Shown here: piece after piece, positions 9,912 to 52,918 of the stretch | Position numbering within the stretch: position 1 is the first letter of the stretch | Layout of the letters: every line of letters begins with the position of its first letter | Program-made: the position numbers and the translations under genes | Source: Candidatus Methanospirareceae archaeon | Lineage (GTDB): Archaea > Halobacteriota > Syntropharchaeia > Alkanophagales > Methanospirareceae | DNA length: 64,000 bases | NCBI GenBank assembly: GCA_049975405.1 | Contig: JBNGDK010000001.1 | Location: 38,593 to 102,592, forward strand | Direction: 5' to 3' | The notes under the pieces: generated by a model | Told to the model about the DNA's origin: nothing | The model's database searches: none | Seen by the model: the letters and a program-made list of their open reading frames with translations, nothing else

Positions 9912-10193
9912 GTGGAGTGGAAGAAAATGGGTATAAAAGTTTACACAACGAAAGTTTGTCCGAATTGTAAGCTCGTCAAAGAGTTCCTGGCAGCTGAGGG
10001 CGAGCAGGTTGAGGAGGTGGATATCACGACAGCGGAAGCGCTGACCGAGCTGCGGATGGCGGGCGTCTTCACGATGACCACCCCCGTCGTGCAGATCGGG
10101 CCGCGGTTTCTCACCTCGGAGGTCTTGTTTGATGGTGATGTATTACGGAAGGATATGCTGAAAGCAGCGTTAAAGGAAGTGGGAGGAGCATGA
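9912..10193 (+). CDS. Glutaredoxin/NrdH-like small redoxin (CxxC)
   Basis: 93 aa with VYTTKVCPNCKLVKEFL, a thioredoxin-fold CPxC motif. Its stop overlaps the nrdD start (ATGA at 10190-10193). Confidence 0.6.
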   Translation: MEWKKMGIKVYTTKVCPNCKLVKEFLAAEGEQVEEVDITTAEALTELRMAGVFTMTTPVVQIGPRFLTSEVLFDGDVLRKDMLKAALKEVGGA

Positions 10194-12481
10194 ACCGACT
10201 TTTTGGTATTGAGAATGGCTCGGTGCAGACCATGCTGGACGGGATGCGATTACGTTTCCCCAAGGTGCGAACCAGCGACGGACACATAGTTGAGTGGGAC
10301 CGGGAAGCAATCGTGAAGCAGCTGCTACGTGAGACCACGTTGGGTGCGAAATTCTACGGTAAGCCCTCGATTGACGAGGAAACGGCGCGTGAAATCGCGA
10401 GGGAGGCGGAGCTCCGGATCAAGGTGATGGGTATCTCGCAGCTCTCGGGCGCGCTCGTGCGCGAGATCGTGAACCAGATCTTACTGGAGGAGTACAAGGA
10501 GCAGGAGTGGCGGAATGTCTGTACCCGGGTGGGTACGCCGGTCTACGACGCGCATCTGATCGACGTTGGCGAGGGCTTCGAGGCGAACGAGAACGCGAAT
10601 CTGCAGGAGAACGCGGAGACCTCGCACAAGAAGAAGGCGGACAAGATCTGCAAGGAGCAGTATCTGTTGTTGTTGCCGCCGAAGCTCGCTGATCTGCACC
10701 TCAGCGGCGATCTGCACATCCATGATCTCGAGTATTTCGGGACGCGCGGGTTCTGCCAGGACTGGGACCTGCGGTACTTCTTCTATTATGGCCTGATGCC
10801 GGATGGCTCGGGCACAAAGGCCTCGGTCGCGGGCCCCGCGAAGAAGCCGGAAGTGGCGATCCTGCACGCGGTCAAGATATTAGGGAGCGCGCAGACGAAC
10901 TTCGCGGGCGGCCAGGGCTTCTTCAATTTCCTTACGTTCATTGCACCCTACCTGGAAGGTTTATCATACGAGGAGATCGAGCAGTTGATGCAGATGTTCG
11001 TCTACGAGATGACGCAGATGCAGGTGGCGCGAGGCGGGCAGCTGGTCTTCTCCTCGGTGCAGCTCACGCCAGGCGTGCCGAAGATCTGGAAAGATAAGCC
11101 CGTGGTGTACAAGGGTGACGTCTGGGACGGCGAACGGGCGCCGTTGAGAACCTACGGTGAATACGAGCGCGAGGTACGGCTGGCCTTCAAGGCGCTGATG
11201 AATGTGATGCTGCAGGGCGATTACTGGGGCAAGCCGTTCAACTTCCCGAAGCCGGAGATCGCAATCGAGCCGTTCTTCCTGACCGAGGACGAGCCATTCA
11301 ATACCGACCATCCAGATTTGCCCACGTATTCAGAGCTCTATGATCTGGCGTTCAAATTGACCGCGAAGTACGGGTCGCCGTATTTCGATAACAAGATGCC
11401 GGAGTATCGAGGCGCGGGCGAAGGCGTGTCCTGTTACCAGTGCTGCGCGTACAGCTTCAAGACCTCGCCGGACGATGAAGACTTCAAGGACAAGATGTAC
11501 TTCAGGAACGGCGCACACTTCACCATGGGCGGCTGGCAGGTGATCACGCTTAACTGCCCGCGGGCCGCGTATCGGGCTGATCACGACGACGAACAGCTGT
11601 TTGCTGAGCTGAAGCGGCTGATGGACCGCGCGGTTGAGGTGCTGAAGATCAAGAAGCGGTGGATGCACCAGATTGTCGAGAGCGGACGGATGCCGTTCGC
11701 AACACAGCGGCCAAAAGATCCGCATACGAACGAGAAGGGCACAATGGCTGTTCATCTCGACGAGCTCGTGTATATCATCGGTGTGGCCGGTATCAACGAG
11801 ATGGTGCAGTACCATTACGGGAAGCAATTGCACGAGGACGAAGGAGCGTTACGGCTCGCCGTGCACGCGATGACCGTGATGGAGCTGTACGCGAAGGAGC
11901 TCTCGCAGCGCGAAGGTATGACAATTAGCTTCTCACGCACGCCCGCAGAGACCGTGGTGCAGCGGTTTGCTGTGGCCGACCTCTTGAATCAGGAGTTCAG
12001 GGAGAACGCGCTGAGCGTGGTGAAAGGCGATATTGAGGGCGCACTGGCACGGATCCACGAGACGCGTGATCTGCCTATTTACTATACGAACGGGACGCAC
12101 GTCCCACCCGCCGCGAAGATCTCACTTGCCGAGCGGATCGAAATCGAGCACCGGTTCTTCCCCATCGTGGACGGCGGGAACATCATGCACATCTTCCTCG
12201 GCGAGGGGTATCCCGATCCACGCGGCGTTAAGAGTCTGGCGATGAAGATCGCGAAGAACACGCAGACGGGCTACTTCGCCTTCACCAAAGATCTGACGGT
12301 CTGTAAAGACTGCGCGCATGTCACGATGGGGCTGCGAGAGGTGTGTGAGCAGTGCAACTCGGACAACCTCGATTACATCTCACGGATAACCGGCTACCTG
12401 CAGGCGGTGAGTGGCTGGAACGCGGGCAAGCGCCAGGAACTGCTTGATCGGATGCGGTACGGTGGGGATGAGGTGCGGTAA
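10190..12481 (+). CDS. nrdD: Anaerobic (class III) ribonucleoside-triphosphate reductase NrdD
   Basis: 763 aa. A C-terminal glycyl-radical motif (RITGYLQAV) is present. A C-terminal Zn ribbon (CKDCAH...CEQC) is present. Confidence 0.9.
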   Translation: MNRLFGIENGSVQTMLDGMRLRFPKVRTSDGHIVEWDREAIVKQLLRETTLGAKFYGKPSIDEETAREIAREAELRIKVMGISQLSGALVREIVNQILLEEYKEQEWRNVCTRVGTPVYDAHLIDVGEGFEANENANLQENAETSHKKKADKICKEQYLLLLPPKLADLHLSGDLHIHDLEYFGTRGFCQDWDLRYFFYYGLMPDGSGTKASVAGPAKKPEVAILHAVKILGSAQTNFAGGQGFFNFLTFIAPYLEGLSYEEIEQLMQMFVYEMTQMQVARGGQLVFSSVQLTPGVPKIWKDKPVVYKGDVWDGERAPLRTYGEYEREVRLAFKALMNVMLQGDYWGKPFNFPKPEIAIEPFFLTEDEPFNTDHPDLPTYSELYDLAFKLTAKYGSPYFDNKMPEYRGAGEGVSCYQCCAYSFKTSPDDEDFKDKMYFRNGAHFTMGGWQVITLNCPRAAYRADHDDEQLFAELKRLMDRAVEVLKIKKRWMHQIVESGRMPFATQRPKDPHTNEKGTMAVHLDELVYIIGVAGINEMVQYHYGKQLHEDEGALRLAVHAMTVMELYAKELSQREGMTISFSRTPAETVVQRFAVADLLNQEFRENALSVVKGDIEGALARIHETRDLPIYYTNGTHVPPAAKISLAERIEIEHRFFPIVDGGNIMHIFLGEGYPDPRGVKSLAMKIAKNTQTGYFAFTKDLTVCKDCAHVTMGLREVCEQCNSDNLDYISRITGYLQAVSGWNAGKRQELLDRMRYGGDEVR

Positions 12482-25178: not shown

Positions 25179-27521
25179 ATGAAGCCAAATCCTTCGCGCT
25201 CTTGCTGGGTTTTGGTCTTTGCAGTTCTCTGCTCTATCTGTTTCAGCGGCTGCCTCGAGCCCACTCCAACAGAACCGGAAGAGACAATGGCAACCTTACA
25301 AACCGCTGCGATTGATCTGTCGAGCGCGGAAGCGACGGCGAAGACGCGATTCATCGAATATTATTCGTTACCTGCGCTGAATATCAGTTTACAGACCGCG
25401 CAGTACAGTCTACCGCTCGATACCGATAAGGTCAGTAACTACCGCGAGTTCTCGCGTACAATCTCACTGGATGAAGCTGCTATACAACTCTTGGAGACAA
25501 ACGGGTTCGTCGTCATCGATTATCCGTTCAACGCACATGAGGAGGATATAACAACACCATATACCACCCTAAAGGATCGCGAGATACCGATCTTCATCAC
25601 CGCCGATTCGCTCCTGCATCTCTATCATATCCAGTTCGATGAAACGCTGCGGCAGATCGAGGAGCGCGAATTTTACGACCTCATCTGGGAGATCAGCCGT
25701 GAGCTGTTGAACGAGTCTGTAGCTGATTATAACCGGTACGACGGCGAGCTGAAGGAAGCTGCACGCAGGAATACGGCCTACTTCGCGGTCGGTTTGAGCC
25801 TGTTGCAGCCACGGGAGGATCAGCTCTGTACCGACGGCTGGGAATGTCGGGATCCCGGGCTGGCGAGCGCGTATTTCACCTCAGAGGAGTTGGTGATCTA
25901 TAGTTTCGAGGTACCGGATTTTGTGAAGGCTGAGGTTGAGGCGGAATTAGCGCTGATCGAGACCCACGCTGGCTTAGAGACGTCACCGATCTTCAGGTAT
26001 GCAGAGGATTACTCGCAATACGTGCCGCGGGGGCATTACACGCGGAGCGAGAAGCTGAAGAATTATTTCAAAGCGTTCATGTGGTACGGCCGTCTCAGTT
26101 TCTTGCTGAAAGGCCGTCCGGAAGGATTGGTCGCGGAAGAAGACGCCAGACTACAGACGATGGGCGCGGCGCTCATTACAACGCACTTAGAGCAGCAGCC
26201 GGCGTTACAGGCAAAGTGGGATCGGATTTATGCCGTCACTGCGTTCTACGTTGGACTCTCCGACGACCTGGGCCCCTATGAGTACCGGGAGGCCTTGAAT
26301 TCCGTGTTCACCGGAACGTTCGAGCCGACCATGCTCACCGAAGAGCGCGTGAAGGACTTGAAGACGAAGCTCGCTGAGTATCGTTCGCCTGAAATCTACG
26401 GTGGCACGGGCGATTGCGTGATTCCACCGCCGTTCACACCGGAACAGGCCGATGAGTGCCTGGAGGCCACCAAAGGATTCCGGTTGATGGGCCAGCGGTT
26501 CATTCCTGATTCCTACATGTTCTCGAATCTGGTTGGTACGTATACAGATATCTATCAGGGCGATCGAGAGCCGAAACCGTTTACGTACGTAGTTTCAGGC
26601 GCGGGCCGCCCGATACGGGGATTCCCGCGCGGTCTGGACGTCATAGCGCTCTTGGGCGCTGCTCGCGCACGGGCGCTCCTGGACGAGCTGGATGATTCCA
26701 ATTATAAAGGGTACGTTGCGGCGTATAGCGACTTAGCGGCGGAATTCCAGAACTTCAGCGACGCTGACTGGAACCAGAATTTATACTGGAGCTGGCTCTT
26801 CACGCTCCAGCCACTCTTAAAAACGTACGGCACCGGCTATCCGACTTTTATGCAGTCCACAGCATGGCAGGACAAAGCGCTCACCACCGCGCTCGCCTCA
26901 TGGACCGAGCTGCGGCACGATACCATACTCTACGCGAAACAGAGCTATACCATGGTGGAATCCGCGATGCCGATGCCAACGCCGGAGAAAGAGGTGGTCG
27001 GCTATATCGAGCCGGCGCCTGAGTTTTACAACCGGTTGCTGGCACTGACCCGGATGACCACGGACGGCCTGGAGAGCATGGATGTGCTGGACGAACCGGC
27101 GAAGTACCGGTTAGAGCGGTTAGAGACGATTTTGGAGCGTCTGGTGGTCTTATCTGGGAAGGAGCTGGCGAACGAGGAATTGACCGAGGCTGATTACCAG
27201 TTCATCGAGAACTTCGGCGACGAGTTGAACGACGTGATCGCGGAGGTCGATGAGAAGGCGAAGAAGACCACGATCGTCGCGGACGTCCACACGGAAGGGA
27301 ACACCGGGCAGGTGCTCGAGGAAGGGGTCGGGTACGTCGATCTGATAGTCGTGGCCTACAAGGTTCCCGACGGGCGAATACTAATCGGTGCGGGCCCTGT
27401 GCTGAGCTATTACGAGTTCAAGCAGCCCATGCAGAACCGGCTAGCAGACGAGCAGTGGCGTGAGTTGCTCCAGGATGAGCCACCCGCGCGGCCGGAATGG
27501 TACGTTAATTTCGCCCGGTAA
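25179..27521 (+). CDS. Large secreted lipoprotein-like protein of unknown function
   Basis: 780 aa. N-terminal signal with lipobox-like Cys (LCSICFSGCLEP). No catalytic motif recognised. Confidence 0.5.
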   Translation: MKPNPSRSCWVLVFAVLCSICFSGCLEPTPTEPEETMATLQTAAIDLSSAEATAKTRFIEYYSLPALNISLQTAQYSLPLDTDKVSNYREFSRTISLDEAAIQLLETNGFVVIDYPFNAHEEDITTPYTTLKDREIPIFITADSLLHLYHIQFDETLRQIEEREFYDLIWEISRELLNESVADYNRYDGELKEAARRNTAYFAVGLSLLQPREDQLCTDGWECRDPGLASAYFTSEELVIYSFEVPDFVKAEVEAELALIETHAGLETSPIFRYAEDYSQYVPRGHYTRSEKLKNYFKAFMWYGRLSFLLKGRPEGLVAEEDARLQTMGAALITTHLEQQPALQAKWDRIYAVTAFYVGLSDDLGPYEYREALNSVFTGTFEPTMLTEERVKDLKTKLAEYRSPEIYGGTGDCVIPPPFTPEQADECLEATKGFRLMGQRFIPDSYMFSNLVGTYTDIYQGDREPKPFTYVVSGAGRPIRGFPRGLDVIALLGAARARALLDELDDSNYKGYVAAYSDLAAEFQNFSDADWNQNLYWSWLFTLQPLLKTYGTGYPTFMQSTAWQDKALTTALASWTELRHDTILYAKQSYTMVESAMPMPTPEKEVVGYIEPAPEFYNRLLALTRMTTDGLESMDVLDEPAKYRLERLETILERLVVLSGKELANEELTEADYQFIENFGDELNDVIAEVDEKAKKTTIVADVHTEGNTGQVLEEGVGYVDLIVVAYKVPDGRILIGAGPVLSYYEFKQPMQNRLADEQWRELLQDEPPARPEWYVNFAR

Positions 27522-27667: not shown

Positions 27668-28732
27668 ATGCCTCAGCCTATCACGAAACGGTCGAAGAAG
27701 AGTGGACTGCCACCGGGCACGCTCATTCATATCGGCGAGCGGAAGACCGAGAAGGTACGTATTACGCTCATTGATTATGATGAAGAGCAGTTAGAGGAGC
27801 GTGAAGTAGAACGGGTCGAAGAGGTCTTTACCTTTAACCAGCGGCCCACAGTCACCTGGATCAACATTGATGGTATCCATGATGTAGAGCTGATGAAAGC
27901 GGTCGGGCAGCATTTCGGCGTTCATCCACTCCTCCTAGAGGACATTCTGAACACTGAGCAGCGTCCCAAGATGGATGATTACGAGTCATACCTCTTCCTC
28001 GTCCTAAAGATGCTCTATTATAACGGGGAAGAGCGCGAGATCGAGGCCGAGCAGGTGAGCTTGATACTTGGTTCGACCTTCGTTATCTCCTTCCAGGAAC
28101 GCGAGGGCGACGTCTTCAATTTCGTGCGTGACCGCATCAGGAACAAGAAAGGGCGGATACGAAAGGCGGGTCCCGATTATCTTGCCTACGCATTGATCGA
28201 TGCGATCGTGGATAACTATTTCATGATCCTGGAGAAGATCGGGGAGGTGATTGAGGATACCGAGGAGGAACTGGTGACCAATCCGACGCCAGAGACGATA
28301 CGCACCATCCACGGCCTCAAACGGAGCATGATCTTCCTCCGGAAGTCCGTCTGGCCGCTTCGTGAGGTCCTCAGCGGCCTTGAACGTCTTGAATCACCGC
28401 TCATTCAGGAGCCCACCGACATTTATCTCCGCGATCTCTACGACCACACCATCCAGGTGATCGACACCGTCGAGAATTTCCGCGATATGATCGCCGGGAT
28501 GCTCGATATTTACCTCTCCAGCCTCAGCAACAAGATGAACGAGATCATGAAGGTGCTGACCATCATCGCCACGATCTTTATCCCATTGACGTTTATAGCG
28601 GGCATCTACGGCATGAATTTCGAATACATGCCCGAGCTCGGCTGGCGCTGGGGCTACCCTGCTGTTTGGATTGTGATAGTTGCGATTTGCGCTACGATGG
28701 TTCTTTACTTCAGACGAAGAGGATGGTTGTGA
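27668..28732 (+). CDS. corA: Magnesium/cobalt transporter CorA
   Basis: 354 aa. C-terminal two TM helices with the YGMNFEYMPEL (GMN) signature. Confidence 0.9.
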   Translation: MPQPITKRSKKSGLPPGTLIHIGERKTEKVRITLIDYDEEQLEEREVERVEEVFTFNQRPTVTWINIDGIHDVELMKAVGQHFGVHPLLLEDILNTEQRPKMDDYESYLFLVLKMLYYNGEEREIEAEQVSLILGSTFVISFQEREGDVFNFVRDRIRNKKGRIRKAGPDYLAYALIDAIVDNYFMILEKIGEVIEDTEEELVTNPTPETIRTIHGLKRSMIFLRKSVWPLREVLSGLERLESPLIQEPTDIYLRDLYDHTIQVIDTVENFRDMIAGMLDIYLSSLSNKMNEIMKVLTIIATIFIPLTFIAGIYGMNFEYMPELGWRWGYPAVWIVIVAICATMVLYFRRRGWL

Positions 28733-33294: not shown

Positions 33295-34215
33295 ATGAGA
33301 AAAAGAGCGGATTACCTCGGCAGGAAACGTACGCTAATCTTTATTTTCTTTCTTCTAATGGGGATTTCGGCTCTGCCCGTGATGGCGAGCGCGCTTCCTG
33401 ACGAGAGCTGTAGTGGTACTGTGAACGAAGAGCAGCAAGAGATCCTCTGGCAGGGTGACGTGATTCTAACGAACAGAACGACGATCACGGTGACGGCGCA
33501 CAATAGCGGCGTTGAGTATGAGGTGAACGAAACGACTGCGCTCGGGGCATTGGACGCAGCCGCGACCGCCGGCGCGTTCAACTACACGGTGACGGACGAA
33601 TGGGGCTTCCTCTTCGCCGACTCGATCGCGGATGTCGCGCAAGAGGGCTGGAGCGGGTGGATCTACTGGGTGAACTACCCGGCGAAGCCGATGCCGCTGG
33701 TGGGCGCGACCGACCACGCGGTAGAAGATGGCGATGTGGTGACGTGGTACTGGAGCAGCAGCATGGAGATGACACCCGCGGATTCGCCACTGCTCGTGAT
33801 CATCAACGTCTCTGTGACGGAAGATCCAACGTCGCCAACACCAGATCCCACGCTTGAGCCTACGCCAGCGCTATCACCACGCCGCAGTGGCGGAAGGCGT
33901 GAACCACAGGACTCCGATGCCGATGGCTACTCAGACATCAAGGAACTTCTGGCCGAAACCAATCCGAACGATCCCACTGACTACCCGGGCAAAGTGCGTG
34001 CAGAAGTCACCATGACGACACCTGCACCATCCTCAACACCAATGAGCACGCCAGCACTAACACCAACTGCAACGCTGCCACAAACCTCGGTTGCAATAAC
34101 GCCGCCACCCGCATCATCAACCGCAACGCTTCAGGCGCCGGGTTTTGAAGCCATAGCTCTCATCGCCGGGTTGCTCGCCACAGCCTGTATCCTCAAACGA
34201 AAAACGAGCCGGTAA
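33295..34215 (+). CDS. Secreted protein with transcobalamin-like beta-domain (DUF4430-like) and C-terminal PGF-CTERM archaeosortase signal
   Basis: N-terminal signal peptide. GWSGWIYWVN...GDVVTWYW motif resembling DUF4430. Thr/Pro-rich linker. C-terminus ...LQAPGFEAIALIAGLLATACILKRKTSR. Confidence 0.6.
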   Translation: MRKRADYLGRKRTLIFIFFLLMGISALPVMASALPDESCSGTVNEEQQEILWQGDVILTNRTTITVTAHNSGVEYEVNETTALGALDAAATAGAFNYTVTDEWGFLFADSIADVAQEGWSGWIYWVNYPAKPMPLVGATDHAVEDGDVVTWYWSSSMEMTPADSPLLVIINVSVTEDPTSPTPDPTLEPTPALSPRRSGGRREPQDSDADGYSDIKELLAETNPNDPTDYPGKVRAEVTMTTPAPSSTPMSTPALTPTATLPQTSVAITPPPASSTATLQAPGFEAIALIAGLLATACILKRKTSR

Positions 34216-34221
34216 CCAAGA

Positions 34222-35898
34222 ATGAGCAGATCAAGCCTCTTTCCTTCTTTTATCCCTCATCCATGTCTGTTCTCCGTTCTCTTAGTGGTTGCGCTATTTC
34301 TCACGCTACCCCTGACGCTCGCCGCCGTGAGCGACAGGGGGGGATACCCCATGCTCCAGTACGACGCGCAACGTACCGGGAACGCGAGCCGCACGGCACC
34401 AGGAACCGCCACGCTGCTCTGGCAATCGAGCGAGAAGACCGCCGGCTGCTTCCAGGCGGGACCAATCGTTGCCAACGACCGGGTCTACGTGGCTACCTGG
34501 GCGTCGTGGATGGCTGGAAATGCCACTGATGCGCTCTACTGCCTTGATTTGGAGACAGGCAGGGAAATTTGGAATAACACGAACGTTTACGGCGCCTCAA
34601 CGGCGGCATGTGCTAACAACAGGCTCTTTCTGGGCACCACAGCCGGAACCTTGGCGTGCGTCAATGCGACGAGCGGTGAAGTCCTCTGGAATAAGCAAAT
34701 AGATCCGAGTGCTTCGTATCATGGCGTCGCCTCCTCGCCGCTGGTGCACGAAAATCTGGTGTACGTCCTGAGCTTCTCGGATGGCACGCTCCATGCCTTC
34801 TCCTTTGACGGCACCGAGCAGTGGCACTTCTCCACCGGCGGCCAGATCTTCTGCTACGCCTCGCCCGCGGCATATGCGGATAAACTGCTCTTCGCCGGAA
34901 ACGCAGCAAATCAGCACGCGCTCTACTGCATGAACCTGAGTACGCACGAGGTGGTCTGGAAGTTCACTACGGCCACTGAAATCCGGGCCACACCTACCAT
35001 TTGGGCGGACGAAGATTTGGTCTTCTTCTCCACGAAGTACGTCATCGGGAAACCACATGGCCTCTACGCACTCAATCTGAGCACGGGTGTAGAGTCCTGG
35101 AACGTCACGCACAAATCGAGCTGGGCTTCTCCCGCGTTGAGCGACGGAAAACTGTACATTGGAGGCTCGGCCGTCGATTCCACGCTCTATTGCTACAACG
35201 CACGCAACGGCTCGCTCCTCTGGAAGAACGAGGAGATGCGCGGCTCGATCGACTCTTCACCGGTCGTCGCTGGTGGGAAGGTGTACTTCGGCACGAATGA
35301 AGTTGATGGAACGGTCTTCGCGGTGGATGCGGACACGGGAACCACGCTCTGGAGCTACACGCTTCACATCCCCCCGGGCTATGGTGGAGGATACAATATA
35401 GCATCACATCCAGCCGTCGCTGATCGCACGTTACTTATAGGAGTCGATAATATCGGTGTACTCGCCTTTCGTGATCCGCAGTTCGCGGAATTCGATACTG
35501 GCACGCCGGAGCATCCGTATCCAAGCATCCCTGGTACATTTTATGGGTCGCTCACGCCCGCACACGATCTCTTGGTAAACACAATGCTCTCATGGGCATG
35601 CGACGGAACCGGCGGACATGTTGAATACGTTAGGATATGGAACGATACGTGGATAGGCGCAACCGCGCAGTGGAACGGGTACGTGGGCGATTGGCACACT
35701 ATCACGTTTTCGGAACCATTTCTGCTTCATAAAAACGAACTCTATTATTATCGTATAGAAATCGGCTCATACCCGCAGCTGCACCATAAAAACGAGCTTA
35801 TAGTGAGCGATGGGATGATCACTTGCACGAACTTCACCGATGCAAACGGGGTGGCCCATTACGGGGCAATTCCCGCAATACGGTTGTATTTCTGGTAA
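34222..35898 (+). CDS. Secreted PQQ-repeat beta-propeller protein with extra C-terminal domain
   Basis: 558 aa with an N-terminal signal peptide. Repeated LYCxD/xGxxLW blade motifs are present (e.g. ALYCLDLETGREIWN, LACVNATSGEVLWN). Confidence 0.7.
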   Translation: MSRSSLFPSFIPHPCLFSVLLVVALFLTLPLTLAAVSDRGGYPMLQYDAQRTGNASRTAPGTATLLWQSSEKTAGCFQAGPIVANDRVYVATWASWMAGNATDALYCLDLETGREIWNNTNVYGASTAACANNRLFLGTTAGTLACVNATSGEVLWNKQIDPSASYHGVASSPLVHENLVYVLSFSDGTLHAFSFDGTEQWHFSTGGQIFCYASPAAYADKLLFAGNAANQHALYCMNLSTHEVVWKFTTATEIRATPTIWADEDLVFFSTKYVIGKPHGLYALNLSTGVESWNVTHKSSWASPALSDGKLYIGGSAVDSTLYCYNARNGSLLWKNEEMRGSIDSSPVVAGGKVYFGTNEVDGTVFAVDADTGTTLWSYTLHIPPGYGGGYNIASHPAVADRTLLIGVDNIGVLAFRDPQFAEFDTGTPEHPYPSIPGTFYGSLTPAHDLLVNTMLSWACDGTGGHVEYVRIWNDTWIGATAQWNGYVGDWHTITFSEPFLLHKNELYYYRIEIGSYPQLHHKNELIVSDGMITCTNFTDANGVAHYGAIPAIRLYFW

Positions 35899-35899
35899 G

Positions 35900-36556
35900 A
35901 TGAACGAGAATAAGGCCTTCGTGTCCTGGAGTGGCGGAAAGGACAGCTCGCTTGCCTGTTTACGCGCTATGACGGCAGGCTGCGAGGTCTCGTATCTCCT
36001 GAACATGCTGGATGAGTCTGGCGAGCGCGAGCGAGCACATGGCACACGCCCGTTTCTGCTGCAACTGCAGGCAGAAGCGATGCACATTCCCATGATCCAG
36101 GTGAACGCCTCGTGGGAAATGTACGAGCCCGAATTCAAAGCCGCCGTGAGGAGACTGAAGCGCGAGGGGATAGAACGAGGCGTATTTGGTGATATTGATC
36201 TCCGCGAGCATCGCGCCTGGGTTGAACGCGTCTGTGAAGAGCTGGCGATCGAGCCCATACTTCCGCTCTGGGGGGTCGATCCTGATGCACTCTTACACGA
36301 GTTCGTCACATCAGGCTTCGAGGCTATCGTCGTCGCGACGCGGGTCAATAAGGACTGGCTCGGCCGGAAGATCGATGAGTCGTTCATCAGTGAGCTGCAG
36401 GAGTGCGAGTTCCACGCAGCCGGTGAATCCGGCGAGTATCATTCGTTCGTCATCAACGGTCCGCTCTTCAGGAGAAGGATACGGGTGAGCGAAACTGAAC
36501 GGGTGCGTCATGGCGACCACTGGTTCCTGGATATCACGCGGGGTGAGCTTGAATGA
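35900..36556 (+). CDS. PP-loop ATP pyrophosphatase of the Dph6/DUF71 (MJ0570-like) family
   Basis: Start MNENKAFVSWSGGKDSSLA, an SGGKDS PP-loop. The start is 2 nt after the upstream stop. Confidence 0.6.
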   Translation: MNENKAFVSWSGGKDSSLACLRAMTAGCEVSYLLNMLDESGERERAHGTRPFLLQLQAEAMHIPMIQVNASWEMYEPEFKAAVRRLKREGIERGVFGDIDLREHRAWVERVCEELAIEPILPLWGVDPDALLHEFVTSGFEAIVVATRVNKDWLGRKIDESFISELQECEFHAAGESGEYHSFVINGPLFRRRIRVSETERVRHGDHWFLDITRGELE

Positions 36557-38550
36557 GCACGCGCACACTCGTGGTTCTCTTTACTGTACTGGCGTTCTGC
36601 TTCAGCTCCACGATCTGCGTGGCGAGCAGCGTCACCCCCTGGAACTCTATCACCAATGACGCTTCTGAGAGCTTATCCCTCGATCTCCACCTGGACGAAT
36701 ATGCGGAGGTTGAATTCTCCGTTACTGCTGGCTCGTCCTATCGGTGGACGTGGATGGTGAACGGTGAAGTGATCAAGGAGACCGACGGAACGAGCTCAAA
36801 TCTCGAGTATGTCGTCAATGACTACGGCAGTTACGCTATCAGTGCCCGAGGCACCGGTGGAAATGAGACGCTTCAAGCCTCATGGAACCTGACCGTTTGG
36901 CTGGTCTTAGATAAAGAAAACGACGTTCGGGAACTCGAAGGGCTTGAGGACTACGTCTTACGGCTTTCTAAGAGACCCGAGCGGATCGTTTCTATGGCAC
37001 CGAGCTGCACGGAGTTCCTGTTCGCCGTTGGCGCCGGGGATCAGGTGGTCGGCGTGACGGAGTACTGCGATTATCCGTCCGAGGTGGTGGAGAAGAAGAA
37101 GCGTGGCGAAATAGGTGTGATCGGCGGCTATTCCACACCCAGCTTCGAGAAGATCGTGGCACTACAGCCCGATCTGGTCGTGGGCGCCTATGGCAATCCT
37201 GACGACGTGCTCTACTGGCTCGTTGACGAAAGCGCACACCCGGGGGTCATCTATCCGCTCTATGCACAGAACCCTGAGAACATCGAGGAGATCTTCCAGC
37301 ATCTCACGGTGGTAGGCGCGCTAACAGGCTGCAGAGCTGAGGCCGATTCACTGGAGTACGAGCTTCGAGAGAGAATAGCAGCCATCACAGCAGAGACCGC
37401 TTCCATTACTAAACAGGAGAAGCCGCGCGTCTTTTATAATATCGGCGATTTCTTCACCGCCGGTGACAATACTTTCGTCAACGAGGTCATTACGCTCGCG
37501 GGTGGCACAAACATTGCCGCCGAGTCCTCGGGTTACTTCGTTATGAACCTCGAAGAGCTGATCTATCGCAATCCGCAGGTAATTATCTGCGATAGCGGTA
37601 TGGGGAGCATGAGTCTCGCGTATGAGCAGATCATGGGGGACAAACGGCTGCAAATGCTCGATGCAGTAAAAAACAGCTGGGTGTACGTCATTGACGCCGA
37701 CATCATAGATCGGCCAAGCCCCCGCATTGTGGATGCTCTGGAGCTCGTCCACCTTGATTATAGCGACTTCTTCGTGGCCACACGCCCAACACCCTCACCG
37801 ACAGAATCTCCTTCATCAGCCAGCAGTGGTGGCTCGAGCGCGAAAGCTACCCCGACTGCTACAGCGCCCTCGACGGCCGCGTCGTCGCCACAGGTGACCG
37901 AAGCTGCGCGAATCGTTCCGGTGCTGAAGGCAGGTGAAGCTGCAGCAATGCTCTTCGCGGATATGGATATCTCGATGCTCACGCTCAGCTCGGATACCAC
38001 GGTCAGCGATGTAAGAATCGCGATAAAACGTGTGGCGAGACCCCCGAACGTTCCTGCGCCTCCTGCCACCACGTATGTATACCTTGACCTCACGGTCGCA
38101 ACAGAAGAAAGTTCACCGATCTCTGGCAGTATCGATTTTAAGGTGCTGAAATCGTGGCTCGAAGTCCATGATATTGCGGAGTCGACCGTTAGTCTTTCCA
38201 GATATGATGAGCGAGTTGGGTGGTCTAAACTATCCACCTCGCGCGTCGATGCGGACGATCTCTTCGTCTTCTTTGAGGCGGCGACGCCGGAGTTTTCGCT
38301 CTTCGCGATCACGGGAGAGCAGCAACCAAGGGCAGAAGGAACAACCGCCGCTCCGTCTGCTGCGCCTACCGCAACACCACGTCCCCTAAGCGATCCCGCA
38401 CAAACAGCAAACGCTCCTGTTGCAACATCCGAGCCAGAGACGAGCGCCGCAGGGATTCCGGGATACGAAGCGATCGGCGCGGCGATTGCGCTACTCATCA
38501 TTACTGTCCGCAGGCGAGGTAGAGGATTGAAATCCGGGACGGGGCGCTAA
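36553..38550 (+). CDS. Class III (BtuF/FhuD/TroA-type) substrate-binding protein with an N-terminal extra domain, a pre-PGF-like domain and a PGF-CTERM-like anchor
   Basis: Signal peptide. SBP core (RPERIVSMAPSCTEFLFAVGAGDQVVGV ... RPSPRIVDALE). Ser/Thr/Pro linkers. C-terminus ...AAGIPGYEAIGAAIALLIITVRRRGRGL. Confidence 0.75.
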   Translation: MSTRTLVVLFTVLAFCFSSTICVASSVTPWNSITNDASESLSLDLHLDEYAEVEFSVTAGSSYRWTWMVNGEVIKETDGTSSNLEYVVNDYGSYAISARGTGGNETLQASWNLTVWLVLDKENDVRELEGLEDYVLRLSKRPERIVSMAPSCTEFLFAVGAGDQVVGVTEYCDYPSEVVEKKKRGEIGVIGGYSTPSFEKIVALQPDLVVGAYGNPDDVLYWLVDESAHPGVIYPLYAQNPENIEEIFQHLTVVGALTGCRAEADSLEYELRERIAAITAETASITKQEKPRVFYNIGDFFTAGDNTFVNEVITLAGGTNIAAESSGYFVMNLEELIYRNPQVIICDSGMGSMSLAYEQIMGDKRLQMLDAVKNSWVYVIDADIIDRPSPRIVDALELVHLDYSDFFVATRPTPSPTESPSSASSGGSSAKATPTATAPSTAASSPQVTEAARIVPVLKAGEAAAMLFADMDISMLTLSSDTTVSDVRIAIKRVARPPNVPAPPATTYVYLDLTVATEESSPISGSIDFKVLKSWLEVHDIAESTVSLSRYDERVGWSKLSTSRVDADDLFVFFEAATPEFSLFAITGEQQPRAEGTTAAPSAAPTATPRPLSDPAQTANAPVATSEPETSAAGIPGYEAIGAAIALLIITVRRRGRGLKSGTGR

Positions 38551-38619
38551 TCTTTACGATCCGCTGCTTTAAGCTAAGCATGGACAATAGCGTGAATAAA
38601 GAATCGAGGAAACTGGGCT

Positions 38620-39672
38620 ATGAAGCACGATGAACCGGTATATAGCGCACCGGGACTGCGAAAAGTACTCCACTGGAAGCTGGTGCTGATTTACTTGCTG
38701 CTCTTTCTTGGTCTCTCCATCATCTTGACCACGGCGATTGGGCCCGTGTACGTGCCGCCGCAGGAGATCGTCGCGTTGTTCGGTAGCAAACTCGGGCTCT
38801 GCGTCCCCTCCTCAGTGGCCCATGAGGTTATCATCTTCGAGATACGATTACCGCGGATTTTCCTCGGTCTCCTAGTCGGCATTGCCCTCGCCACCGCAGG
38901 AACAGCACTCCAGGGCCTGTTCAAGAACCCCATGGCCGACCCCTACATCATCGGCATCGCCTCCGGCGCCTCGGTCGGCGCCGCGCTCTCGATCCTGGTC
39001 ATCCCGCAGGTCTTCTCCATCTATACCACGCCGCTTATGGCCTTTCTTGGCGCGCTCTGCACCATCCTCGCCGTCTATAATATCGCGAAGGTCGGCGGTC
39101 GTATCCCCGTGGATACCCTCTTGCTCACCGGTATTGCCGTCTCCCTGTTCCTGGGCGCGGTGTTATCTTTTATGATGTCCATCGCCGGCGAGGCATTGCA
39201 TAACATCTTCTTCTGGACGATGGGCGGCTTCTGGCTCGCGAACTGGACGAAAGTGAAAATAACCCTGCTGCCCGTGCTTCTCAGCTTCGGCGTGATCTAT
39301 CTCTTCGCCAAGGACCTCAATGCCATGCTGCTCGGTGAAGAATCAGCACAGACCCTCGGCATCAATGTCGAGACGGCAAAACGGATCCTTCTGGTGCTCG
39401 CTGCGTTCATCACCGCCGCGGCCGTCGCGTTTACCGGTACCATCGGGTTCGTGGGGTTGATCATACCGCACATCACCCGAATTTTGGTGGGCCCCGATCA
39501 TCGCATCCTCTTTCCCGCCTCGGCATTACTGGGTGGGATTTTCCTCATTTGGACGGACGCACTGGCGCGGTTATTGGCCGAGATGCCCGTTGGCGTGATC
39601 ACCGCTTTCTTCGGTGCGCCGTTCTTCATTTACCTGCTGAAGAAGCGAAAGAGCGGATATGCCCTGGCATAA
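38620..39672 (+). CDS. FecCD/BtuC-family ABC transporter permease
   Basis: 350 aa and about 10 TM helices. A conserved Gly-rich motif (ADPYIIGIASGASVGAAL) is present. No ATPase gene follows. Confidence 0.85.
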   Translation: MKHDEPVYSAPGLRKVLHWKLVLIYLLLFLGLSIILTTAIGPVYVPPQEIVALFGSKLGLCVPSSVAHEVIIFEIRLPRIFLGLLVGIALATAGTALQGLFKNPMADPYIIGIASGASVGAALSILVIPQVFSIYTTPLMAFLGALCTILAVYNIAKVGGRIPVDTLLLTGIAVSLFLGAVLSFMMSIAGEALHNIFFWTMGGFWLANWTKVKITLLPVLLSFGVIYLFAKDLNAMLLGEESAQTLGINVETAKRILLVLAAFITAAAVAFTGTIGFVGLIIPHITRILVGPDHRILFPASALLGGIFLIWTDALARLLAEMPVGVITAFFGAPFFIYLLKKRKSGYALA

Positions 39673-39698
39673 CGGTAGAACCTAAAACTAGTTTGCAC

Positions 39699-40049
39699 TC
39701 ACTCAACCGCTACACCGACGGCACGCTGAATCAATCGCCCGATCTCATCGAGCTCCTTCTCAATCGGCCCTCGCTTATCCGGTATTTCAAGGATGATGGG
39801 CCGTACGCCCTTTTTCTTCGCATTGATGTCCCGGATCTTCTCACGGGTACGTGGATCAGCCGCCAGCTTCTCAGTGATAAGAATAAGCGCAAAGTCCTCG
39901 CGTACCAGGCGATCCAATACACGGACGGTATCCTCCCCTTCCTGGTCCTGCTCATACACCGCATTCACGCCCGCGAGCCGGAATCCCGTGGCGGTATCTG
40001 GATCACCAATCACTGCTACTGCGTTCATGTTCCCTTTTATAGAGTGCAA
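39699..40049 (-). CDS. atpF: A/V-type ATP synthase subunit F
   Basis: MNAVAVIGDPDTATGFRLAGV is the typical subunit F N-terminus. Confidence 0.8.
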   Translation of the reverse strand: MHSIKGNMNAVAVIGDPDTATGFRLAGVNAVYEQDQEGEDTVRVLDRLVREDFALILITEKLAADPRTREKIRDINAKKKGVRPIILEIPDKRGPIEKELDEIGRLIQRAVGVAVE

Positions 40050-40135
40050 GGGAATGGAAAGAAGTGATCATCCCACCCGCGCTCGCTTTTTACACCTCCT
40101 TTCTCGTATCTGATGATCAGACAGATCGAACTGGA

Positions 40136-40801
40136 TCAGGAAGACGTTTTCTCGAAGAGCGCTTTTACGATCTCCTCACGGAGACTCGTCGAGAAACGTG
40201 CTCTGCGTTGCTCGAAGGTGTTGTTCACCTCGATCTTCCCGTCCCTTTGCCGGACTATAACGCCCCCAACTGATTTTATCTGTTCGGCGGCCAGCGTGAG
40301 CTTAAAATCTCTGCCATGCTCGCTGCTCAGTGTTTTACCCAATTCCGTGAGCTGTGCTTGCGTAATATGTGCTGCGGCTGCATCTTCCTCGCTAAGGAGC
40401 ACGTCCAGGTCTATTCCAGCACTGCTACTCCCGGTCGCAATGCTCAAGACACTCTCGGTTATGAGCCCGCTCAAGATCCCCGCGTACGAGACGTCCTTGA
40501 ATCCGGAGCGCTTCACCTCGGATATGTGGGTAAGTGCGGACTCCAGGGTTCTCTCGATCATCGCTTCCTCTGTCCTCCATTTGAGCTTTCTCGCGTTTTG
40601 GCGTGCCGCACGTACAATGCGCTCCTTTTCATCCACACCTTTCCGCTCTTCAGCAGCTATAAACTGTTGCTTCTGCTGCTCGAGTTCTTGACGCGCTGCT
40701 TCGAGTTTCGCTTCGGCCTGCTGCTTCGCATCAGCCGTAATCTGTTGCCCTTCCTCGCGAGCTTCCTCTCTTATCCGCTCCACCATCTCTTTCGCGCCCA
40801 T
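40136..40801 (-). CDS. atpE: A/V-type ATP synthase subunit E
   Basis: 221 aa with a charged coiled-coil N-terminus (EEAREEGQQITADAKQQAEAKLEAARQ) and a subunit-E-like globular C-terminus. Confidence 0.7.
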   Translation of the reverse strand: MGAKEMVERIREEAREEGQQITADAKQQAEAKLEAARQELEQQKQQFIAAEERKGVDEKERIVRAARQNARKLKWRTEEAMIERTLESALTHISEVKRSGFKDVSYAGILSGLITESVLSIATGSSSAGIDLDVLLSEEDAAAAHITQAQLTELGKTLSSEHGRDFKLTLAAEQIKSVGGVIVRQRDGKIEVNNTFEQRRARFSTSLREEIVKALFEKTSS

Positions 40802-40807
40802 CGACTA

Positions 40808-41125
40808 TCACCTCAGGCCTAAAATGCGCTCCAGCACGACTGCAATCGCATGATCGAGATTCGACTCAGCGGCAGCTTTCAGCTGCCCTGCTTCCGCTTC
40901 GGCAGCTTGCATAATCTTCGCCTCCTCTTGCTTCCCCTCCTCAATATGCCTCGCAGCAATCTCAGCGGCTAAACGCTTCTCTTCCTCACGCGTCTGCTCC
41001 TTGAGCCGTTTGATCTCCTCATCAGCATTCTGGAGAATGGTCGAGACGCTCGCTTTTGCCTCTTCGAGCACCTTTCGGCCTTCCTCTTCACCTTCTCGTA
41101 TGATCTTCAGCGCTTCTACTGCCAT
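40808..41125 (-). CDS. atpH: A/V-type ATP synthase subunit H
   Basis: 105 aa all-helical EAK-rich protein (ALKIIREGEEEGRKVLEEAKA) immediately upstream of subunit E. Confidence 0.6.
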   Translation of the reverse strand: MAVEALKIIREGEEEGRKVLEEAKASVSTILQNADEEIKRLKEQTREEEKRLAAEIAARHIEEGKQEEAKIMQAAEAEAGQLKAAAESNLDHAIAVVLERILGLR

Positions 41126-41817: not shown

Positions 41818-42639
41818 TTGGTGGTCAGTGTGAACGTGACAGTTAGCTTTTCTTCGGTTGATGCCCTTCGCAGTCCCCTGGACTGGATGTACCGGCTCGA
41901 GGAGGCCGGCTTCCAAGGCTGGGAGATCGTAAATGAGGGACTACAGAAAGTAGAAGGCGGCTTGAAAGAGCGGGTGCGAGCAGTGCATGAAACGACTGAT
42001 CTTATCTTTTCACTTCATGCACCGCTCTCAGATATCAACATCGGGAGTGTTAACGAGCCGATCTGGAAGGAGAGCGTGCGTCAGGTAAAGGAGAGCATAG
42101 AGAGCACTTACGAATTCATCGACGATGTCTGCGTCGTCCACCCGGGTTTCTTCTCGCCGCTATCCGTGCAACAGCCAGATTCCGCGGTTCAGAAGGCCGT
42201 TCAGGCACTCACCTCACTCTGCGAGTTCGCTGCCGATCGCGGTTTGCGCATTGCGGTCGAGAACTTGACCTCGGCGAATATGCTCATGGGTCGGTATCCC
42301 GACGAACTCGTGCAACTTGTTCGTGAGACGAATATGGAGAATCTGGGGATCTGCCTCGATGTCGGGCATGCAAATACCACTCAGACGCTGGACGCGTTTT
42401 TCCGTATTCCAGCAGAGAACGAGGGCGTGGAGATCATACACCTGCATGCGAGCGATAATATGGGCGAGCGCGATCTTCATCTTCCGCTGGGAGAAGGTAA
42501 TCTGGATTGGCGCAAAGTGGTTCGCGGCGTGCATGATAATGGCTACTCTGGGATCATGGTACTGGAGCTCTACACCCTTGAGGCGGGTATCGCGAGTCTG
42601 GACTTCCTCAACAACCTGCTCGCACACCACGGCCTCTGA
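41818..42639 (+). CDS. Sugar-phosphate isomerase/epimerase (xylose-isomerase-like TIM barrel) family protein
   Basis: 273 aa with an HxxD/E metal-ligand pattern (LHASDNMGERDLHLPLGEG). Confidence 0.55.
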   Translation: MVVSVNVTVSFSSVDALRSPLDWMYRLEEAGFQGWEIVNEGLQKVEGGLKERVRAVHETTDLIFSLHAPLSDINIGSVNEPIWKESVRQVKESIESTYEFIDDVCVVHPGFFSPLSVQQPDSAVQKAVQALTSLCEFAADRGLRIAVENLTSANMLMGRYPDELVQLVRETNMENLGICLDVGHANTTQTLDAFFRIPAENEGVEIIHLHASDNMGERDLHLPLGEGNLDWRKVVRGVHDNGYSGIMVLELYTLEAGIASLDFLNNLLAHHGL

Positions 42640-52819: not shown

Positions 52820-52918
52820 CGCCGAGGAAGGGATTTGAACCCTTGAGTTCCTTTCGGAACACAGGCTATCTAGTCCGGAGAGCTCCAGGCCTGCGCCTTA
52901 CCGCTCAGCCACCTCGGC
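52820..52918 (-). tRNA. tRNA-Ser (anticodon GGA) with a ~15-nt intron 3' of position 37
   Basis: Reverse complement reads GCCGAGGTGGCTGAGCGGTAAGGCGCAGGCCTGGAG[CTCTCCGGACTAGAT]AGCCTGTGTTCCGAAAGGAACTCAAGGGTTCAAATCCCTTCCTCGGCG. 3-bp D stem, long variable arm, anticodon stem CAGGC/GCCTG. Confidence 0.75.

Follow-up and report, generated by a model that had tools for sequence, protein, structure and literature searches.

Cobamides, the vitamin B12 family, are essential for methyl-transfer steps in methanogenesis and reverse methanogenesis, and are made by some microbes only. To our knowledge, their acquisition from outside the cell by archaea is known only in the form of the BtuFCD transporter. 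In mammals, the carriers transcobalamin, intrinsic factor and haptocorrin clamp B12 between an alpha-barrel and a C-terminal beta-domain. In Bacteroides, several surface-tethered binders (BtuG, BtuH or the fused BtuGH, BtuJ and BtuK) are layered before the membrane transporter BtuB; a 2026 review of this relay calls extracellular capture in organisms without an outer membrane uncharacterised, and reports no archaeal homologues of the BtuJ-type binder family PF14717 (PMC13616437).

The locus described here lies in a 64-kb window (i.e. the whole stretch of DNA that was analysed) of a Methanospirareceae MAG, an ANME-1 methane-oxidising archaeon, and probably encodes the capture, import and salvage of cobamides. 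It most likely represents a system with which archaea and monoderm bacteria capture cobamides outside the cell and import them, and of which the literature that we searched holds no description, in line with the proposal of the initial annotation that such a module is undescribed for methanogen-like archaea. That annotation had recognised four co-directional genes, here termed a to d; all four are present on the + strand within 33295-39672, but the count is five, a 218-aa Diphthami_syn_2 gene (DUF71-B12) between b and c having been overlooked. The spacings along genes a, b, DUF71-B12, c and d are 6, 1, -4 and 69 nt and thus fit one tightly packed operon, in which the DUF71-B12 gene starts 1 nt past the stop of gene b, overlaps the start of gene c by 4 nt and is translationally coupled.

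Gene a (33295..34215, + strand) encodes a 306-aa protein. Its signal peptide (assigned by reading, with the long start kept in P0002) is followed by a DUF4430 domain and by a linker rich in Pro and Thr, which contains a TSP3/dockerin-like Ca-binding repeat (residues 206-227); the protein ends in a probable PGF-CTERM anchor. The DUF4430 domain (33427..33819, + strand; residues ~45-175) is the proposed corrinoid-binding unit. The transcobalamin-like signature noted for it initially is borne out both by Pfam, with PF14478 matching residues 81-154 at 26.2 bits (gathering 23.8, E 1e-5) and being present in every close homologue, and by fold comparison, which identifies the domain as having the beta-domain fold of transcobalamin, intrinsic factor and haptocorrin. 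The nearest solved folds are cobalamin carriers throughout, although identity to the mammalian carriers is only 13-18%. Gene a differs from these carriers further in that no N-terminal alpha6/alpha6 barrel, the other half of the clamp, was found before its beta-domain in a Pfam search, and in that its product is membrane-tethered, whereas the carriers are soluble plasma or gastric proteins; the barrel is present in the gene a homologues P0050, L086 and L047, from Archaeoglobus and Dehalococcoidia. The solved bacterial DUF4430 structure, 3u7z, is called a 'putative metal binding protein' in its deposition, and on a Syntrophomonas contig (L040) Moco/W and c-di-GMP-II riboswitches precede a secreted DUF4430 protein; the linkage of DUF4430 to B12 is not exclusive. 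With respect to the sorting signal (34138..34212, + strand), the proposed PGF-CTERM tether is evident in the sequence as a PGF motif followed by a TM helix and a basic tail ('...LQAPGFEAIALIAGLLATACILKRKTSR'), but its Pfam PF18204 score of 17.8 bits is slightly below the 18.8 gathering threshold.

Gene b (34222..35898, + strand; 558 aa) encodes a secreted PQQ-type beta-propeller, as first annotated, with a signal peptide, no C-terminal anchor, and matches to PQQ_2 (131 bits) and Beta-prop_ACSF4 (143 bits), all Pfam families on it being of the PQQ/BamB type. In the predicted model the propeller (~60-420) has 8 blades and is followed by a C-terminal beta-rich domain (~440-558), which reappears after DUF4430 in ANME-1 paralogues; the protein is a candidate scaffold or second binder coupling a and c. 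BamB, tetrathionate hydrolase and YxaL are its nearest solved folds in a Foldseek search against the PDB, BamB being the closest (E 2e-18, TM 0.8 on target, identity 16-18%). BamB is a protein-protein scaffold, and we know of no BAM complex in archaea; the likeness is one of fold only, and gene b adds its C-terminal domain. Neither BtuG nor BtuK is among the 50 listed matches which, together with the 8 blades and the BamB-like folds, ruled out gene b as a BtuG relative. The comparison with BtuG made initially is therefore accurate in that both proteins are beta-propellers, but the parallel with Bacteroides is one of analogy.

The same structural results bear on whether the propeller, rather than DUF4430, might be the main high-affinity corrinoid binder. 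In that case it would be a lid resembling BtuG by convergence, from which the substrate-binding protein (SBP) is loaded, and DUF4430 would be a reservoir in the manner of BtuH or BtuJ. The Bacteroides propellers BtuG and BtuK1 bind B12 on one face, and in BtuGH the propeller is joined to a second B12-binding domain (PMC13616437); fusions of a similar kind, to DUF4430 and to SBPs, occur for the present propeller, which in Firmicutes is B12-riboswitch co-regulated. Since the blade number and the nearest solved folds, which include a scaffold and, among the 50 listed matches, neither Bacteroides propeller, point the other way, we hold this arrangement to be possible but rather unlikely.

Gene c (36553..38550, + strand; 665 aa) has, after its signal peptide, an Ig/PKD-like N-domain (~30-130) and a class III SBP domain (~138-400), followed by a PST linker, then a PGF-pre-PGF domain (472-588; 77 bits, cutoff 28) and a putative PGY-TM-basic anchor. 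Its placement in the BtuF/FhuD class is supported by a 116-bit Pfam match of the Peripla_BP_2 (BtuF-like) domain (36964..37752, + strand) and by NCBIfam, where BtuF PRK03379 is the top ligand-named model (82 bits; equivalog cutoff 234). The PGF-CTERM anchoring ascribed to it can be upheld in part: the pre-PGF domain is present and in the L009 orthologue the PGF-CTERM match, at 29.8 bits, exceeds the gathering score, but the tail of gene c itself ('GIPGYEAIGAAIALLIITVRRRGRG') is a PGY variant without a Pfam PGF-CTERM match. Like TIGR04281, the PGF-CTERM-anchored ABC SBP family, gene c is an archaeal class III SBP with a probable PGF-type C-terminal anchor, but it reaches only 147 bits (cutoff 325) and differs by its extra N-terminal Ig-like domain, its pre-PGF domain and the PGY variant. 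Gene d (38620..39672, + strand; 350 aa) encodes the BtuC/FecCD type II ABC importer permease that had been recognised from the outset, with a FecCD score of 308 bits and, as the best NCBIfam model, archaeal-type BtuC NF007081 (359 bits versus 226 for the next family; equivalog cutoff 461).

The module shares with the BtuFCD type II importer (of E. coli and of the haloarchaeal models NF007081/NF007082) a class III SBP and a FecCD permease for which BtuF and BtuC are the best ligand-named models, but differs in its multidomain, membrane-anchored SBP, in scoring under the equivalog cutoffs and in having no BtuD at the locus. No ABC ATPase was found anywhere in the window, either in an ORF search for Walker A plus LSGGQ or by tblastn with ANME-1 BtuD, and the transporter is thus incomplete at this locus. 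BtuD is also missing from the related locus L088 and is present in L006, L013, L016 and L087; the ATPase of an ANME-1 relative has as its top match a 'corrinoid ABC transporter ATPase'. The initial annotation was silent on the absence of an ATPase.

The class III SBPs that bind B12, haem or siderophores are closely related, and it is conceivable, though improbable, that the transporter imports, and the surface proteins capture, another metal chelate or tetrapyrrole; candidates are an iron-siderophore, F430 or another nickel tetrapyrrole, and haem, which would go into the abundant multihaem cytochromes of ANME. The best PDB match of gene c is a vitamin B12-binding protein (5ysc, 3e-25), but judged by sequence alone an 'iron-binding protein' (4m7o, 5e-25) is as close, the haem binders ShuT/PhuT match its SBP at 9e-17, and weaker NCBIfam matches extend to F420-0, IsdE and FecB models; neither gene c nor gene d reaches an equivalog cutoff, and the DUF4430 protein behind a Moco riboswitch suggests that this domain may not be ligand-specific. 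Against this, the BtuC model beats the FhuB, FecD and F420-0 models by >130 bits, the solved folds nearest to gene a all belong to cobalamin carriers, no gene related to iron or haem turned up in the loci with Pfam-annotated neighbours, and five cobalamin riboswitches control homologues of module genes. Relatives of genes c and d at 37-60% identity are transporters whose genes lie in cob operons or follow a cobalamin riboswitch: the SBP of gene c is 37-39% identical to those of L050, L083 and L084, and gene d is 60% identical to a Methanocellales BtuC sited in a cob cluster. The ligand in this archaeon is thus probably a corrinoid.

The additional gene in the operon (35900..36556, + strand; 218 aa) argues in the same direction. 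It encodes a cytoplasmic DUF71-B12 PP-loop ATP pyrophosphatase, a Dph6 paralogue and predicted corrinoid salvage enzyme, which matches PF01902 Diphthami_syn_2 at 181 bits and the Dph6 equivalog at 134 bits, under its cutoff of 197. In the diagnostic motif, ESGEYH, a His replaces the Dph6 Glu (B12-type E-x-G-E-[F/Y]-H versus Dph6 EGGE/DxE). The DUF71-B12 subfamily, which was defined by the clustering of its genes with cbiB and with those for B12 transport, has a predicted role in B12 salvage (de Crécy-Lagard et al. 2012, PMC3541065); with its PP-loop ATPase domain, ExGE[F/Y]H motif and btuFCD clustering, the present enzyme is a regular member, differing in nothing from that subfamily. Homologues with 52-57% identity occur in riboswitch-controlled cob/btu operons, where they neighbour cobU/T/S, cbiB, cobD and btuFCD (L081, L083 and L084). 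The embedding of this gene, along with cobalamin riboswitches 5' of PQQ-DUF4430 proteins in Firmicutes, strengthens the case for a corrinoid ligand.

The gene neighbourhood proposed as a check in the initial annotation proved to be conserved over several archaeal orders, with its parts repeatedly fused. A relative with 80% identity (L088) has the identical five-gene order and identical flanking genes, and the module recurs in ANME-1, Methanomicrobiales, Methanosarcinales-labelled, Alkanophaga, Methanolliviera and Archaeoglobus loci. In a set of 20 archaeal DUF4430 loci, each no shorter than 12 kb, a PQQ propeller lies within 10 kb in 16, a BtuF-like SBP in 13 and a FecCD permease in 11. Propeller orthologues with 57-89% identity are fused to DUF4430 (P0172, P0179, P0183 and others) or to Peripla_BP_2 (P0197, P0199, P0200 and P0213); P0218 (L087) combines propeller, DUF4430 and Peripla_BP_2 in a single protein, and P0215 carries the source name 'Cobalamin-binding protein'. 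With respect to regulation, the cobalamin riboswitch RF00174 is found in two Firmicutes (L048, 100 bits; L049, 104 bits) immediately 5' of genes for surface proteins of the architecture PQQ-CARDB-DUF4430x2-SLH, lies between a DUF4430 gene and SBP-FecCD-ATPase genes in a Dehalococcoidia locus (L050), and heads the DUF71-B12 plus BtuFCD operons of Desulfofervidus and Dehalococcoidales (L081, 126 bits; L083, 39.5 bits). The cobalamin riboswitch looked for upstream of gene a did not materialise, either at the gathering threshold or at E<=10, and RF00174 was found neither in the 64-kb window nor in eight archaeal loci; we know of no B12-responsive element for the archaeal loci.

PQQ-repeat propellers and PGF-CTERM proteins are common on archaeal surfaces, and ANME-1 genomes hold several domain-shuffled paralogues, as might be expected were a and b generic S-layer or adhesion proteins standing beside an ordinary chelate ABC transporter, with no functional module. 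The covalent fusion of the propeller to DUF4430 and to SBPs in many genomes, adjacency kept across archaeal orders and in bacteria, the tight junctions of the operon and the riboswitch control of Firmicutes homologues make this very improbable. Overall, the reading of the locus as a corrinoid capture and uptake module, as first proposed, is supported by synteny, fusions and the best scores of the BtuF and BtuC models; the results named initially as speaking against it, i.e. no DUF4430 or transcobalamin-fold hit for gene a, unconserved synteny and an SBP grouping with iron-siderophore or Zn/Mn binders, were looked for and not obtained, BtuF being the best-scoring ligand-named model for the SBP.

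In a corrinoid module of this type, DUF4430 of gene a, on its long Pro/Thr tether and lipid-anchored via PGF-CTERM, would bind corrinoids outside the cell; the gene b propeller would associate, probably by physical contact, with a and c as a scaffold or hand-off platform, possibly with a second binding site; and the tethered BtuF-like protein would then take the corrinoid and dock on a dimer of the gene d permease, powered by an ATPase presumably encoded elsewhere in the genome. The imported corrinoid would be processed for re-use by the DUF71-B12 enzyme.

The resemblance to layered scavenging in Bacteroidetes, remarked on initially, applies to the overall arrangement and not to the parts. Both systems place several surface-tethered binders, putative ones in the present module, before a membrane transporter, use a beta-propeller to which in some proteins a further domain for B12 binding (proposed in the case of DUF4430) is joined, have Ig/PKD spacers and lipid anchoring and, for the bacterial counterparts of the module, are under B12 riboswitch control; however, no part of the module showed homology to the Bacteroides relay proteins. 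The propeller is 8-bladed and BamB-like rather than 7-bladed as in BtuG/BtuK, a transcobalamin-beta DUF4430 takes the place of the DUF4465 jellyroll, and the anchor is probably PGF-CTERM/archaeosortase, or SLH in Firmicutes. An outer membrane and a TonB-dependent BtuB are absent, and the corrinoid would be delivered to a tethered BtuF and then to BtuC; the host is an archaeon, as its rRNA operon indicates, and an ORF and Pfam search found no TonB-dependent receptor in the locus. On balance, we lean slightly towards a broader view, that the 8-bladed PQQ/BamB-like propeller plus DUF4430 constitutes an unrecognised, widespread extracellular apparatus with which organisms that lack an outer membrane, among them ANME-1, methanogens, Archaeoglobus, alkane-oxidising archaea and Firmicutes, capture cobamides. 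Such an apparatus would resemble the Bacteroides BtuG/H/J/K relay by convergence and would have an evolutionary link to the B12 carriers of animals.

The locus and its relatives thus provide a concrete candidate capture system with a defined parts list, supply a prokaryotic context for the beta-domain of animal B12 carriers, and give DUF71-B12, long an orphan enzyme, a place in an operon whose extracellular input is defined. ANME archaea and the sulfate reducers that partner them have been proposed to depend on each other for cobalamin (PMC10553843), to which an uptake side may now be added; if the broader view is correct, ANME-1 would be able to obtain cobamides from the sediment or from the partner with which it lives in syntrophy, and both cobamide exchange in methane-oxidising consortia and the DUF71-B12 reaction would become directly testable. 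Cultured carriers and riboswitch-controlled bacterial versions open binding and regulation to test; the Methanoculleus loci are so far from MAGs only, and the module was found in cultured Archaeoglobus sulfaticallidus (L086).

The interval 33295-39672, in which the initial annotation had counted four genes, holds five genes on the + strand, that at 35900-36556 having been overlooked. Gene a (33295-34215, +, 306 aa) encodes a DUF4430 domain with a PGF-CTERM tail, and gene b (34222-35898, +, 558 aa) a PQQ-type propeller followed by a C-terminal domain without family. These are succeeded by the DUF71 gene (35900-36556, +, 218 aa), for a PP-loop enzyme of the Diphthami_syn_2 family, by gene c (36553-38550, +, 665 aa), for a substrate-binding protein (SBP), and by gene d (38620-39672, +, 350 aa), for a FecCD permease. 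The gene c product combines an Ig-like domain with Peripla_BP_2 and PGF-pre-PGF domains, in keeping with the PGF-anchored BtuF-class SBP originally proposed, although its tail is of the PGY-TM-basic type and not PGF-CTERM proper. The product of gene a is 100% identical to a protein of a Candidatus Methanospirareceae (ANME-1) MAG. Genes a and b are separated by 6 nt, b and DUF71 by 1 nt, and c and d by 69 nt, while DUF71 and c overlap by 4 nt; the five genes therefore form one operon, in which the DUF71 gene is translationally coupled to genes b and c. Directly 3' of gene d, on the opposite strand, lie A/V-ATPase subunits F, E and H (39673-41125, -); the window also contains an archaeal rRNA operon, and no ABC ATPase was found anywhere in its 64 kb. 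In an 80%-identical relative (locus L088), A/V-ATPase genes likewise adjoin the permease and there is no btuD; with no btuD at the gene d locus, the transporter has to rely on an ATPase from another part of the genome.

The product of 35900-36556 might be taken for an ordinary diphthine-ammonia ligase, a reading that we reject on three grounds, i.e. a score under the NCBIfam Dph6 equivalog cutoff, a B12-type His motif (ESGEYH at the place of the Dph6 EGGE/DxE), and bacterial homologues at 52-57% identity, diphthamide synthesis being absent from bacteria (PMC3541065). Judged by its sequence, the protein is instead a predicted PP-loop ATPase of the DUF71-B12 subfamily, which, with its B12 prediction, was described by de Crécy-Lagard et al. 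(PMC3541065). Operons of the type cobU-cobT-cobS-cbiB-cobD-...-btuFCD in Desulfofervidus auxilii, whose group has been reported as an ANME partner (PMC10553843), in Dehalococcoidales and in Methanocellales contain the homologues of 52-57% identity.

The strongest evidence that genes a, b and c would work jointly comes from protein fusions. Among orthologues of the gene b propeller, at 57-89% identity, many ANME-1 proteins have a fused DUF4430 domain and others a Peripla_BP_2 domain, one of the latter bearing the source name 'Cobalamin-binding protein'; in one protein (P0218) the propeller is joined to both. A DUF4430 profile scan of 185,579 species genomes gave 78 loci, and mapping of the window proteins onto these by tblastn showed the synteny to be conserved, with arrangements recurring in ANME-1, Methanomicrobiales, Alkanophaga, Methanolliviera, Archaeoglobus and other loci. 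The ANME-1 arrangement is [PQQ-DUF4430]-SBP-DUF71-SBP-FecCD(-ATPase), and L088 keeps the gene order of the window, between argB and atpF, with one extra small SBP and no ATPase. In Methanoculleus and other Methanomicrobiales, FecCD-ATPase is followed by SBP-PQQ-DUF4430 (three to four times) and then SBP. Loci L029 (Methanosarcinales-labelled), L031 (labelled Halobacteria) and L052 (labelled Desulfobacteria) have DUF4430 repeats, then SBP(-DUF71-SBP)-FecCD, the repeats being preceded by a PQQ propeller in L029 and L031. Alkanophaga and Methanolliviera have related arrangements, and in the cultured Archaeoglobus sulfaticallidus the order is PQQ-DUF4430, DUF4430-PKD-alpha-barrel, SBP. Twenty of the archaeal loci span 12 kb or more, and within 10 kb a propeller is present in 16 of these, an SBP in 13 and a FecCD permease in 11; at L001 and L002 the gene lies at a contig end, with little context to read.

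The DUF4430 domain annotated in gene a was recovered by Pfam just above threshold (26.2 against a gathering score of 23.8). Residues 39-181 gave a confident AlphaFold2 model built on 20 homologues (pLDDT 92), and its Foldseek comparison agrees with a transcobalamin-beta-like reading; at the sequence level, neither gene a nor the DUF4430 profile gave a meaningful match in the PDB, so that the transcobalamin link comes from fold comparison only. On this modeling, gene a is a transcobalamin-beta-like domain on a tether. It has the beta-domain only; the full carrier architecture, a prenyltransferase-like alpha/alpha barrel plus DUF4430, occurs in Archaeoglobus, Dehalococcoidia and one metagenomic homologue. 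Residues 206-227 of gene a (33910-33975) form a TSP3/dockerin-like Ca-binding repeat, DSDADGYSDIKELLAETNPNDPTD, and Dockerin_1 domains occur in a number of related PQQ propellers (L009 12608-13771; P0228-P0236), which together hint at a cohesin-dockerin-style assembly of the surface complex. On a Syntrophomonas contig (L040 880-1150), two riboswitches, one of the c-di-GMP-II and one of the Moco/tungsten class, lie upstream of a secreted protein ending in PKD and DUF4430, whose ORF begins at ~1248 and reaches the contig end; the link of the DUF4430 family to B12 is therefore perhaps not exclusive.

The model of gene b is confident at residues ~60-420 and has eight blades, the nearest solved folds by Foldseek being BamB, tetrathionate hydrolase and YxaL. 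The propeller had been likened to BtuG; given eight blades, BamB-type nearest folds and the absence of BtuG among the 50 Foldseek matches listed, we reject BtuG homology and place gene b outside that family. Its C-terminal domain (residues 440-558) has no Pfam match and an AlphaFold2 pLDDT of about 35-65. This beta-rich domain (35539-35895) also follows DUF4430 in ANME-1 paralogues (L001, L003-L005 and L011) at 42-47% identity, and the DUF4430 of gene a is 72-75% identical to those paralogues, whereas it is 51-52% identical to the propeller-fused copies. The sequence identities, with the gene b-type domain found behind DUF4430 in paralogues, point to domain shuffling among the surface proteins.

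As annotated, gene d is a FecCD permease, for which BtuC is the best NCBIfam model by a margin of >130 bits, and with each of the permeases in the four operons compared it shares 43-60% identity. The SBP domain of gene c shares 37-39% identity with its counterparts in the Dehalococcoidia and Methanocellales operons; by sequence it is equally near to 'iron-binding protein' and close to haem binders in the PDB. Neither the BtuF nor the BtuC equivalog cutoff of NCBIfam was reached. The ATPase of an ANME-1 relative has 'corrinoid ABC transporter ATPase' as its best match.

A cobalamin riboswitch was looked for upstream of 33295, and none was detected there at the gathering threshold or at E<=10, nor elsewhere in the window, nor in the scanned loci of eight archaeal relatives; we therefore reject it as the regulator of the archaeal loci tested. 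Bacterial loci do carry such elements. In two Firmicutes MAGs, a large surface protein with a PQQ propeller, CARDB, two DUF4430 and three SLH domains is encoded ~340 nt downstream of RF00174 (the cobalamin riboswitch; 100 and 104 bits), and a second PQQ-SLH protein comes after it. One Dehalococcoidia MAG has a cobalamin riboswitch between the DUF4430 gene and an SBP-FecCD-ATPase operon, and the DUF71-carrying operons of Desulfofervidus auxilii and Dehalococcoidales start with cobalamin riboswitches.

The bacterial riboswitches, the DUF71-B12 gene and the transporter matches are independent ties of the module to B12. The identity of the parts, the fold, the fusions, the synteny and the regulation in bacteria are established by the analysis. 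We infer that the ligand in this archaeon is a corrinoid, that the surface proteins contact one another, and that transfer follows a set order: the tethered DUF4430 domain would catch corrinoids outside the cell; the propeller, as scaffold of the complex or as a second site, would bring DUF4430 and the tethered BtuF-like protein together; the corrinoid would be handed to BtuC and imported with power from an ATPase encoded elsewhere; and DUF71-B12 would process it in the cytoplasm. Such a system would work like the BtuG/H/J/K-BtuB relay of Bacteroides, both having several tethered binders, Ig-like spacers and a propeller that in some proteins is joined to a further binding domain. The layered, Bacteroides-like scavenging first envisaged thus stands as a similar working plan but not as homology of parts, since no archaeal part showed homology to the Bacteroides proteins, and the archaeal side has no outer membrane. 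Archaeal BtuFCD was known before, as were, likewise as separate pieces, the DUF71-B12 prediction, DUF4430 in TCN proteins and PGF-anchored SBPs, for which NCBIfam already has a model (TIGR04281). In TCN proteins the DUF4430 domain is C-terminal (PMC4350170). In the literature searched, which lacked most subscription-journal papers, neither the assembled capture module of archaea and monoderms nor a PQQ-DUF4430 pairing under B12 riboswitch control was described, an absence that does not prove novelty.

Several neighbouring genes and related loci deserve mention. The gene at 41818-42639 (+), 2.1 kb downstream of gene d, encodes a xylose-isomerase-like TIM barrel (AP_endonuc_2, 151 bits), for which the best NCBIfam match is CbiR, a cobamide-remodelling phosphodiesterase (NF041277; 72.5 bits, below the cutoff of 105, the next family scoring 48 bits). 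Homologues occur near the module at L031 (76% identity) and at L002, L019, L023 and L024 (30-35%), and the protein may be a CbiR-like remodelling enzyme of archaea. A single archaeal taxon is reported in the paper on CbiR. Between SBP and FecCD permease, the btu operons of ANME-1 and Methanocellales repeatedly encode a small protein (~226-260 aa) of the radical SAM type, with weak MoaA and NrdG-activase-like matches (L087 10591-11373; L006, L013, L016, L009 (partial), L059, L064 and L084/L085); its gene is absent from the window. In a Dehalococcoidia operon (L050 11892-12632) this position is taken by a radical SAM gene recognised by Pfam only. Among bacterial DUF4430 loci, the full transcobalamin-like architecture, a prenyltransferase-type alpha/alpha barrel plus DUF4430, is seen at L047 (8981-12820) and in numerous Dehalococcoidia loci (L025, L043, L054, L058, L061, L067-L069, L072 and L075-L078), which additionally encode a DUF6580 protein and a second, small protein with DUF4430; in many of them two tandem ABC ATPase genes lie 3-5 kb downstream and suggest a transporter of the ECF type. 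Within the window, a CorA-type Mg/Co/Ni channel (27668-28732, +) is encoded 4.6 kb upstream of the operon, NrdD, the class III anaerobic ribonucleotide reductase, at 10190-12481 (+), and a 780-aa DUF3160 protein (729 bits) at 25179-27521 (+). A tRNA match at 52820-52918 (-; RF00005, 48.9 bits) is 99 nt long, a length that suggests an intron-containing archaeal tRNA.
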